64,000 bases of DNA from an uncultured Actinomycetota bacterium (lineage in GTDB: Bacteria; Actinomycetota; Actinomycetes; JADGOV01), in NCBI GenBank assembly GCA_963814355.1, contig CAWFCZ010000018.1:201692-265691 (forward strand). Direction: 5' to 3'. The notes under the pieces were generated by a model that saw nothing but the letters and a program-made list of their open reading frames with translations, was not told where the DNA came from and searched no databases. A program made the translations under genes and the position numbers. This document shows, in pieces, positions 11,932-12,033 of this stretch (the stretch's first letter is position 1; every line of letters starts with the position of its first letter).

Positions 11932-12033
11932 GGAGAATCGGCGACCATGAGAATCGGCGGAACATGAGAATCGGCGCAGCGTGAGAGCCGGGGCCGGCAT
12001 GAGAACGGGTGCAGCGTGAGAACCGTCGTCCTC
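11932..12033 (+). repeat. Six degenerate tandem copies of a 17-18-nt unit (C/G)RTGAGAAYCGGYG... ending in the GTG start codon of the downstream gene
   Basis: Seen directly: GGGAGAATCGGCGACC / ATGAGAATCGGCGGAAC / ATGAGAATCGGCGCAGC / GTGAGAGCCGGGGCCGGC / ATGAGAACGGGTGCAGC / GTGAGAACCGTCGTC. Confidence 0.7.

Follow-up and report, generated by a model that had tools for sequence, protein, structure and literature searches.

Contingency tracts such as those of Neisseria and Haemophilus are perfect repeats with units of 1–7 nt that lie inside an ORF or between promoter elements. Reinitiation steps in translation are expected to be less than fully efficient. Mycobacterial interspersed repetitive units (MIRUs) lie at start codons, where an internal ORF is coupled at a 4-nt overlap (Supply et al. 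1997, summarised in PMC12548453). Sizes of 77 and 53 bp have been described for these elements, and in the intercistronic MIRU array of senX3-regX3 the copy number varies between strains and the spacer has promoter activity (PMC4213456). Short ORFs whose only role is the delivery of ribosomes have also been reviewed (PMC12548453, citing Huber et al. 2019 and 2023).

Here, we examine a tandem array that runs into the start codon of a SixA-like phosphatase gene within a 64-kb stretch of DNA, the whole of which is referred to as the window. A first-pass annotation had described the array as a textbook substrate for slipped-strand phase variation, unusual for actinobacteria. The latter remark needs qualifying, as both phase variation through homopolymer tracts in M. 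tuberculosis (PMC10334774) and intercistronic MIRU arrays of variable copy number (PMC4213456) have been described. On the sequence comparisons below, the most economical account of the array, and most likely the correct one, is a duplicated stop/start junction.

The operon and its array

The array lies among the following genes.

7094–8167, + strand: MoxR-type AAA+ ATPase, first gene of the operon (Pfam AAA_3, 9.6e-65; AAA_lid_2)
8169–9497, + strand: DUF58 protein (Pfam DUF58)
9494–11911, + strand: TgpA-type transglutaminase-like membrane protein, hereafter TGase (TgpA_N, 6e-48; Transglut_core, 6.7e-24)
11912–12015, + strand: intercistronic spacer, 104 nt between the TGase stop and the phosphatase GTG
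12016–12507, + strand: SixA-like histidine phosphatase, 163 aa (Pfam His_Phos_1, PF00300, 3.2e-11)
12527–12946, − strand: convergent DUF3040 gene (Pfam DUF3040, 5.4e-28)

The MoxR and DUF58 genes are separated by a 1-nt gap (TGAGATG), and the DUF58 stop overlaps the TGase GTG by 4 nt (GTGA), so that the only long junction in the operon is the array spacer between TGase and phosphatase. As annotated at first, the array adjoins the MoxR–DUF58–transglutaminase genes; the spacer begins right after the TGase stop (TAG, 11909–11911), and the TGase C-terminus aligns with that of its relatives up to this codon. Because the upstream junctions are short and a convergent DUF3040 gene lies downstream, the phosphatase is the fourth and last gene of a compact operon. 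The DUF3040 gene, a neighbor also present in the related lineage L034, marks the operon end. Upstream of the operon and transcribed divergently from it (4476–7075, − strand) lie an ANTAR-GAF RNA-binding regulator (5954–7075) and a SpoIIE/PP2C phosphatase (4476–5954), which may regulate the neighborhood.

The phosphatase begins with MRTVVLLRHAKS..., and its Pfam match, which is above the Pfam cut-off, starts at residue 4. Homologues align from the N-terminus, the sequence RHAK occupies residues 8–11, and the clade alignment shows no variation at R8, H9, or H112. The protein thus belongs to His_Phos_1 and includes the N-terminal RHG-type catalytic motif; homologue records are named phosphohistidine phosphatase or SixA family. 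Its second codon is AGA, which accounts for 3 of 304 Arg codons in this genome (1%). In the same codon count, AGG supplies 8/304 Arg (2.6%), ACT 4/167 Thr (2.4%), and AGT 9/161 Ser (5.6%), with a GC3 of 0.87.

Tandem Repeats Finder (TRF) places the array at 11933–12022, with a period of 17, 5.3 copies, 77% matches, 4% indels, and a score of 80. When anchored on the invariant core GAGAR, it extends head to tail from 11931 to 12032 and resolves into six units spaced by 16, 17, 17, 18, and 17 nt.

11931–11946, + strand: unit 1, GGGAGAATCGGCGACC, without a start codon
from 11947, + strand: unit 2, ATGAGAATCGGCGGAAC
from 11964, + strand: unit 3, ATGAGAATCGGCGCAGC
from 11981, + strand: unit 4, GTGAGAGCCGGGGCCGGC, 18 nt
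from 11999, + strand: unit 5, ATGAGAACGGGTGCAGC
from 12016, + strand: unit 6, GTGAGAACCGTCGTCCT, the GTG start and first codons of the phosphatase

The array therefore reiterates the start region of the phosphatase, and its last copy supplies the GTG at 12016, both as previously described. The statement that each unit carries an ATG or GTG holds for five of the six: units 2–6 have ATG, ATG, GTG, ATG, and GTG, but unit 1 reads GGGAGAAT and has GGG where the others have a start codon. The GGGAG of unit 1 is Shine-Dalgarno-like, and its GGAG ends 11 nt 5' of the ATG at 11947.

The array exceeds chance expectation. When all 64 kb were shuffled 60 times with dinucleotide composition preserved, a single shuffle gave any array with a score of at least 80, and an independent short-read Logan assembly (L030) is identical to the window base for base across the array. 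The + strand of the window contains 65 copies of GAGAR (0.1 per 100 nt), and the 90 nt of the array contain 6, an enrichment of about 60-fold. The longest perfect repeat within the array is a 14-mer present in two copies at an offset of 17, in adjacent units 2 and 3. The array 12-mer has no dispersed copies elsewhere in the 64-kb window at up to one mismatch, and matches to the array motif at up to three mismatches are as frequent as expected by chance. A dispersed repeat or mobile element was rejected on these grounds, the motif being absent from the rest of the window.

We also considered and rejected RNA elements. An Rfam search of 11000–13200 (E ≤ 1) returned a single chance snoRNA match, and no known RNA family was assigned; at the gathering threshold, the whole window yielded a TPP riboswitch away from the array and nothing else. 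That riboswitch (RF00059; 44996–45107, + strand) scores 57.2 bits, above its gathering score. The spacer has 65% GC, compared with 72.5% for the window, and is 62% purine; the spacers of the window and of the related lineage L031 have 63–65% GC, and both are purine-rich. The predicted structure of both is low. The window spacer folds worse than its own shuffles (z = +2.78; 200 of 200 shuffles fold at least as well), as does that of L031 (z = +1.87; 198 of 200), and a structured RNA element was rejected.

Relatives of the locus and the stop/start path

This lineage is sparsely sampled in available genomes. With the phosphatase as query, the best relative in a scan of species-representative genomes was 47% identical (Motilibacter), a metagenome scan gave nothing above 48% identity, and neither scan yielded closer strains for a comparison of copy number. 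A large protein collection provided five closer lineages, with phosphatase identities of 71, 70, 62, and 58%, and we compared their contigs with the window. The TGase gene lies directly upstream of the phosphatase gene only in this clade and at none of the distant loci. Outside the close clade, none of the 105 loci scanned has an array running into the start codon.

L031 carries a homologous array at the same junction, which differs from that of the window in unit number, length, and sequence.

L031 array: GCGAGAATCGGCGGAGCA, AGGAGAGTCGCTACAGCAGCA, AGGAGAAACGGGGCAGCA, and AGGAGAATCGGGGCAGCT, followed by TTGAGAACCGTC at the phosphatase start

The GAGAR spacings in L031 are 18, 21, 18, and 17 nt. 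At the positions occupied by CATGAG or CGTGAG in the window, the internal units of L031 carry AAGGAG, which is a canonical Shine-Dalgarno sequence. Flanking coding DNA is 88–89% identical between L031 and the window, whereas the spacer is 66% identical, with indels. Because L031 carries a homologous array, the array predates the split of the two lineages. It evolves faster than its neighbors. L034 and L107, which fall into one 90% protein cluster, have a vestigial 11-nt version (ATGAGAACGAG, GTGAGGAAGAG, ATGAGTACC) and differ by two indels at the junction (91–128 in L034, 151–190 in L107). The first ATGAGAACGAGG unit encodes the four C-terminal TGase residues in L034 and a separate mini-ORF in L107. 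The spacer of L032 and L033 is 7 nt, and the L035 junction is a 4-nt overlap; overall, relatives more distant than L031 have a junction that spans 7–22 nt or overlaps. Across the clade, the number of upstream units ranges from 0 to 5.

The first-pass annotation was correct in suspecting slippage. L031, like the window, contains a recent near-identical pair of units (a 13-mer at an offset of 18), and unit number and length vary by lineage. This pattern is the mark that slippage-type duplication and turnover leave on an evolutionary timescale. Among assemblies, which were the only source for this comparison, copy number is the same in L030 and the window and in L032 and L033, which are identical although drawn from two samples; L034 and L107 are separated by indels, and the window and L031 differ.

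The regularity of the units invites an explanation at the level of DNA, in which the GAGAR–CGG repeats would bind a transcription factor or form an internal phosphatase promoter independent of TGase. Across all 11 units of the window and L031, GAGA is invariant and C+6, G+7, and G+10 are nearly so. The senX3-regX3 MIRU spacer offers a precedent for promoter activity (PMC4213456), and GAGAAT possesses A2 and T6 of a −10 hexamer. However, a promoter and terminator scan of the region returned no sites, sigma-70-like sites included, and the actinobacterial −10 pattern TANNNT is found on neither strand of the window or L031 spacer. Spacings of 16 to 21 nt lack helical phasing, four related lineages keep the operon without the array, and divergence is quicker in the spacer than in the coding DNA on either side. 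The similarity of units within each lineage is equally explained by recent duplication. Overall, we consider this explanation quite improbable.

A different regularity emerges when the junction is read as a series of stop and start codons. Three mini-ORFs, linked by overlaps of the form NTGA, precede the phosphatase.

11947–11967, + strand: mini-ORF 1 (unit 2), ATG-MRIGGT-TGA; the stop overlaps the next ATG (ATGA)
11964–11984, + strand: mini-ORF 2 (unit 3), ATG-MRIGAA-TGA; the stop overlaps the next GTG (GTGA)
11981–12019, + strand: mini-ORF 3 (units 4 and 5), GTG-RAGAGMRTGAA-TGA; the stop overlaps the phosphatase GTG (GTGA)

With its 18 nt, unit 4 leaves unit 5 in the same frame, and mini-ORF 3 carries an internal in-frame ATG at 11999. 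The corresponding paths in the clade, from TGase to phosphatase, read as follows.

Window: TAG, 35 nt, ATG-MRIGGT[ATGA]MRIGAA[GTGA] VRAGAGMRTGAA [GTGA]phosphatase
L031: TAG, 7 nt, TTG-initiated 29-codon ORF, [TTGA]phosphatase
L032/L033: TGase[GTGA]VKPP[GTGA]phosphatase
L034: TGase[GTGA]VRKR[ATGA]phosphatase
L107: TGase[GTGA]VRTR[GTGA]phosphatase, with 5 extra residues
L035: TGase[TTGA]phosphatase

A chain of ORFs with NTGA overlaps ends exactly on the phosphatase start in six of six lineages, where the chain in L035 and L107 depends on the choice between two in-frame starts. The number of relay ORFs is 0, 1, or 3, or the relay is one 29-codon ORF. Each array arrives at this outcome in its own way. 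The units of the window keep NTGA at spacings of 17, 17, 18, and 17 nt (3n+2 or 3n). L031 has AGG in place of the internal ATGs and reaches the start with a single ORF, which still ends there because its units are all 3n (18, 21, and 18 nt), followed by one of 17. L034 and L107 both keep the chain despite the two junction indels between them.

For a background, we used 96 distant SixA-like loci. Of these, 32 (33%) have an NTGA start, and 21 have an upstream ORF that terminates on it. The NTGA-joined path in six of six related lineages compares with 21–32 of 96 distant loci, an enrichment that is only suggestive because the lineages share ancestry and amount to roughly 3–4 independent observations. 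The arrangement of co-directional ORFs with NTGA stop/start overlaps that defines a coupled junction is present in all six lineages, including the window (ATGA, GTGA, GTGA).

The mini-ORFs are rich in the rare codons AGA and AGG. There is one such codon per unit in the window (11947–12019), 7 among the 29 codons of L031 (3133–3222), and 2 among the 4 codons of both L034 (114–128) and L107 (156–170); in this genome, 11 of 304 Arg codons (3.6%) are AGR. The second phosphatase codon starts with A in all lineages (AGA, AGA, ACT, AGT, ACT or AGG, AGG), and each of these is among the rare codons counted above. In several of them, the phosphatase has a GTG or TTG start with a weak Shine-Dalgarno sequence. 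In L031 (3123–3219), the TGase TAG is in the phosphatase frame, which stays open over the intervening 93 nt; readthrough of this codon would give a TGase–phosphatase fusion with a linker of SKE(N/K)RG-type repeats, which may be a coincidence.

Three other tandem repeats were found in the window.

18364–18466: the strongest tandem repeat of the window, period 18/36, 5.7 copies, 88–92% match
54215–54321: 18-nt repeat, 6 copies
61528–61588: 14-nt repeat CAGCACCGCCAGGC, 4.4 copies, TRF score 80, period not a multiple of 3

The first encodes PGLPAE/PGRSAE hexapeptides at the extreme C-terminus of a HEPN_SAV_6107-domain protein (18359–19156, − strand), the gene of which has a stop that overlaps the ATG (ATGA) of a DnaE2-like polymerase (14529–18362, − strand). 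This repeat therefore abuts a coupled-type junction with 3n units, a layout like that of L031. A DUF6504 gene (18964–19626, − strand) lies just upstream of the HEPN_SAV_6107 gene, and the DnaE2-like gene is adjacent to a second error-prone/translesion polymerase, DinB/Pol IV (13149–14378), within 13149–18362 (− strand). The second repeat encodes PAPDR(A/P) in the linker of a Ser/Thr protein kinase-like ORF (53259–55265, + strand) with HRDVKPEN in its translation, and is probably an ordinary low-complexity linker. The third lies between convergent ORF ends (a + strand ORF ending at 61523 and a − strand ORF ending at 61578).

Consequences of unit gain and loss

The proposal of phase variation holds that gain or loss of a 17-nt unit switches or resets the phosphatase, either through its reading frame or through its distance from the promoter. 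Several features recommended it: the repeat is tandem, its period is not a multiple of 3, a perfect 14-mer recurs in the neighboring units 2 and 3, and unit number and length differ between lineages, with indels separating L034 from L107. We simulated in-register deletions and duplications for all unit pairs with three crossover points each, giving 90 variants. The full phosphatase ORF and a valid start were kept in 87 of these; two of the failures place the GGG of unit 1 at the start, and the third crosses inside the 18-nt unit 4. In 80 of the 90, a mini-ORF still terminates on the phosphatase start.

The reason for this in silico robustness lies in the repeat itself. Changes of unit number leave the last unit in a constant frame with respect to the phosphatase, and upstream starts cannot read into the phosphatase because each is closed by a TGA overlapping the next start. 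An N-terminally extended phosphatase initiated from an upstream unit was likewise excluded, by the in-frame TGA at 11965 and the lack of an in-frame start before 12016. Of the claim that a non-3n unit would shift the frame, the period of 17 is borne out but the switching is not. The claim that copy number alters the distance to a promoter fails, as the spacer contains no promoter-like site and no TANNNT, and the gene sits fourth within an operon and, in relatives, directly adjoins or overlaps the TGase gene. Nor do units that match by only 77% resemble the perfect short-unit tracts that would merit the term textbook substrate. Finally, copy number is the same in L030 as in the window, L032 does not differ from L033, and all lineages examined have the ON arrangement. 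By repeat perfection and switching logic, the array is not a contingency locus, and phase variation of the phosphatase is very improbable. More generally, a non-3n tandem repeat at a start codon should not be equated with a phase switch until the true start has been located.

We favor a duplicated junction with a relay that preserves coupling, whether functional or merely tolerated, and hold it to be somewhat better than an even bet. The ancestral junction would have been a stop/start overlap like those in L035, L032, L034, and L107. Slippage would then have serially duplicated a segment consisting of NTGA and the first codons (RTGAGAAC...). Because each copy inherits NTGA, the copies would form a chain of mini-ORFs with the last stop on the phosphatase GTG. 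Ribosomes may load at the Shine-Dalgarno-like site of unit 1 and the ATG at 11947, or come from the TGase stop, 35 nt before this ATG, and termination–reinitiation would hand them from ORF to ORF as far as the phosphatase, with its weak GTG and weak Shine-Dalgarno sequence. The purine-rich direct repeats would keep this stretch of a 72.5% GC mRNA unstructured. As unit gain or loss would hardly affect expression, the array could drift in unit number, length, and sequence while its path remained intact; it is the preservation of coupling by the NTGA copies that would have allowed it to expand and drift.

Translation of the mini-ORFs and synthesis of the phosphatase through reinitiation are what we infer from this arrangement, and certain features temper how it is read. 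Units that begin with NTGA chain almost automatically, and the chain in the window is thus not independent evidence of selection. The TGase TAG is not overlapped by a start in the window (35-nt gap) or in L031 (7-nt gap), so the first link there would rely on scanning or fresh initiation. The lower conservation of the spacer (66%, compared with 88%) also fits mere tolerance. The A-rich rare early codons are equally explicable by selection for low structure.

Alternatively, the array might be a functionless slippage scar, neutral, with mini-ORFs that have no effect and a phosphatase that initiates independently. The faster divergence of the spacer than its flanks agrees with this, as do the origin of the chain as a by-product of NTGA duplication and the 33% background of NTGA starts. 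On the other hand, L031 has kept its frame by 3n units after loss of the internal NTGA, the chain survives the L034/L107 indels, both arrays are markedly unstructured, and in several lineages the phosphatase has a GTG or TTG start and a weak Shine-Dalgarno sequence. We judge a scar of this kind to be distinctly unlikely.

Unit number might instead matter quantitatively, as in a VNTR-like rheostat in which it sets the phosphatase:TGase translation ratio and slow slippage retunes it. The 0 to 5 upstream units across the clade and the recent duplications in both array-bearing lineages would supply the variation, incomplete reinitiation at each step (PMC12548453) would supply the gradation, and the strain-variable MIRU copy number of senX3-regX3 (PMC4213456) would be a parallel. 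The link between unit number and output is hypothetical, however, and the number of reinitiation steps is not a conserved variable, as the internal junctions of L031 are fused in one ORF. The rheostat overlaps with the duplicated-junction relay and does not exclude it; as an explanation of the array it is unlikely.

A more elaborate version is a long shot: a selected, self-extending relay whose rare AGR codons gate the phosphatase by the supply of tRNA-Arg(UCU/CCU) or by ribosome flux, with unit number as an evolvable dial of the phosphatase:TGase ratio. If true, this would be a translational rheostat made from the start site of the gene itself.

Returning to the duplicated junction with its relay, if this account is right, tandem duplication can lengthen a junction of overlapping stop and start codons while the genes on either side stay coupled, because every copy carries its own NTGA. 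The locus would then represent a natural case of several reinitiation steps in series.

Comparison with known systems

Contingency loci share with this array a tandem repeat beside a start codon, a non-3n period, and a slippage-type history. Their short repeats are perfect or nearly so, and a change in unit number switches expression through frame or promoter spacing; here, in contrast, the units are long, degenerate, and upstream of the start, and unit changes leave the ORF intact. Iterons and direct-repeat operators also consist of several direct repeats of 17–21 nt with an invariant core. Unlike these, the array is accompanied by no promoter, origin, or cognate binding-protein gene, its spacing is variable, and close relatives with the operon lack the array.

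The likeness to MIRUs is closer. Each repeat carries a small ORF with a stop that overlaps the next start by 4 nt, and copy number is lineage-variable. The units of 16–21 nt contrast with MIRU units of 53–77 bp or longer and fall outside the size of about 40–100 bp expected of such elements. MIRUs occur at many loci and are apparently mobile, whereas the array motif appears nowhere else in the 64-kb window; the upstream end of the window array is also not overlapped but separated by the 35-nt gap. On unit size and on dispersal within the window, the array is not a MIRU. What the two have in common is an intercistronic position and an internal ORF coupled by 4 nt, a likeness of working that is no evidence of common origin. 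An origin independent of MIRUs is the more likely because the array resembles the start region of its own gene, from which the units seem to derive, rather than an inserted element. If the relay operates as proposed, it would do on a small scale, and with endogenous sequence, what mobile MIRUs have been suggested to do.

The closest parallel is termination–reinitiation coupling, with its 4-nt overlaps, co-directional ORFs, and very short delivery ORFs, and other junctions of this operon use a similar device. Known cases involve one junction or leader ORF, whereas up to three consecutive relay ORFs are predicted here from sequence. Coupled junctions and delivery ORFs are thus familiar; what would be new is a multi-step relay that arose by tandem duplication of a gene's own start junction.
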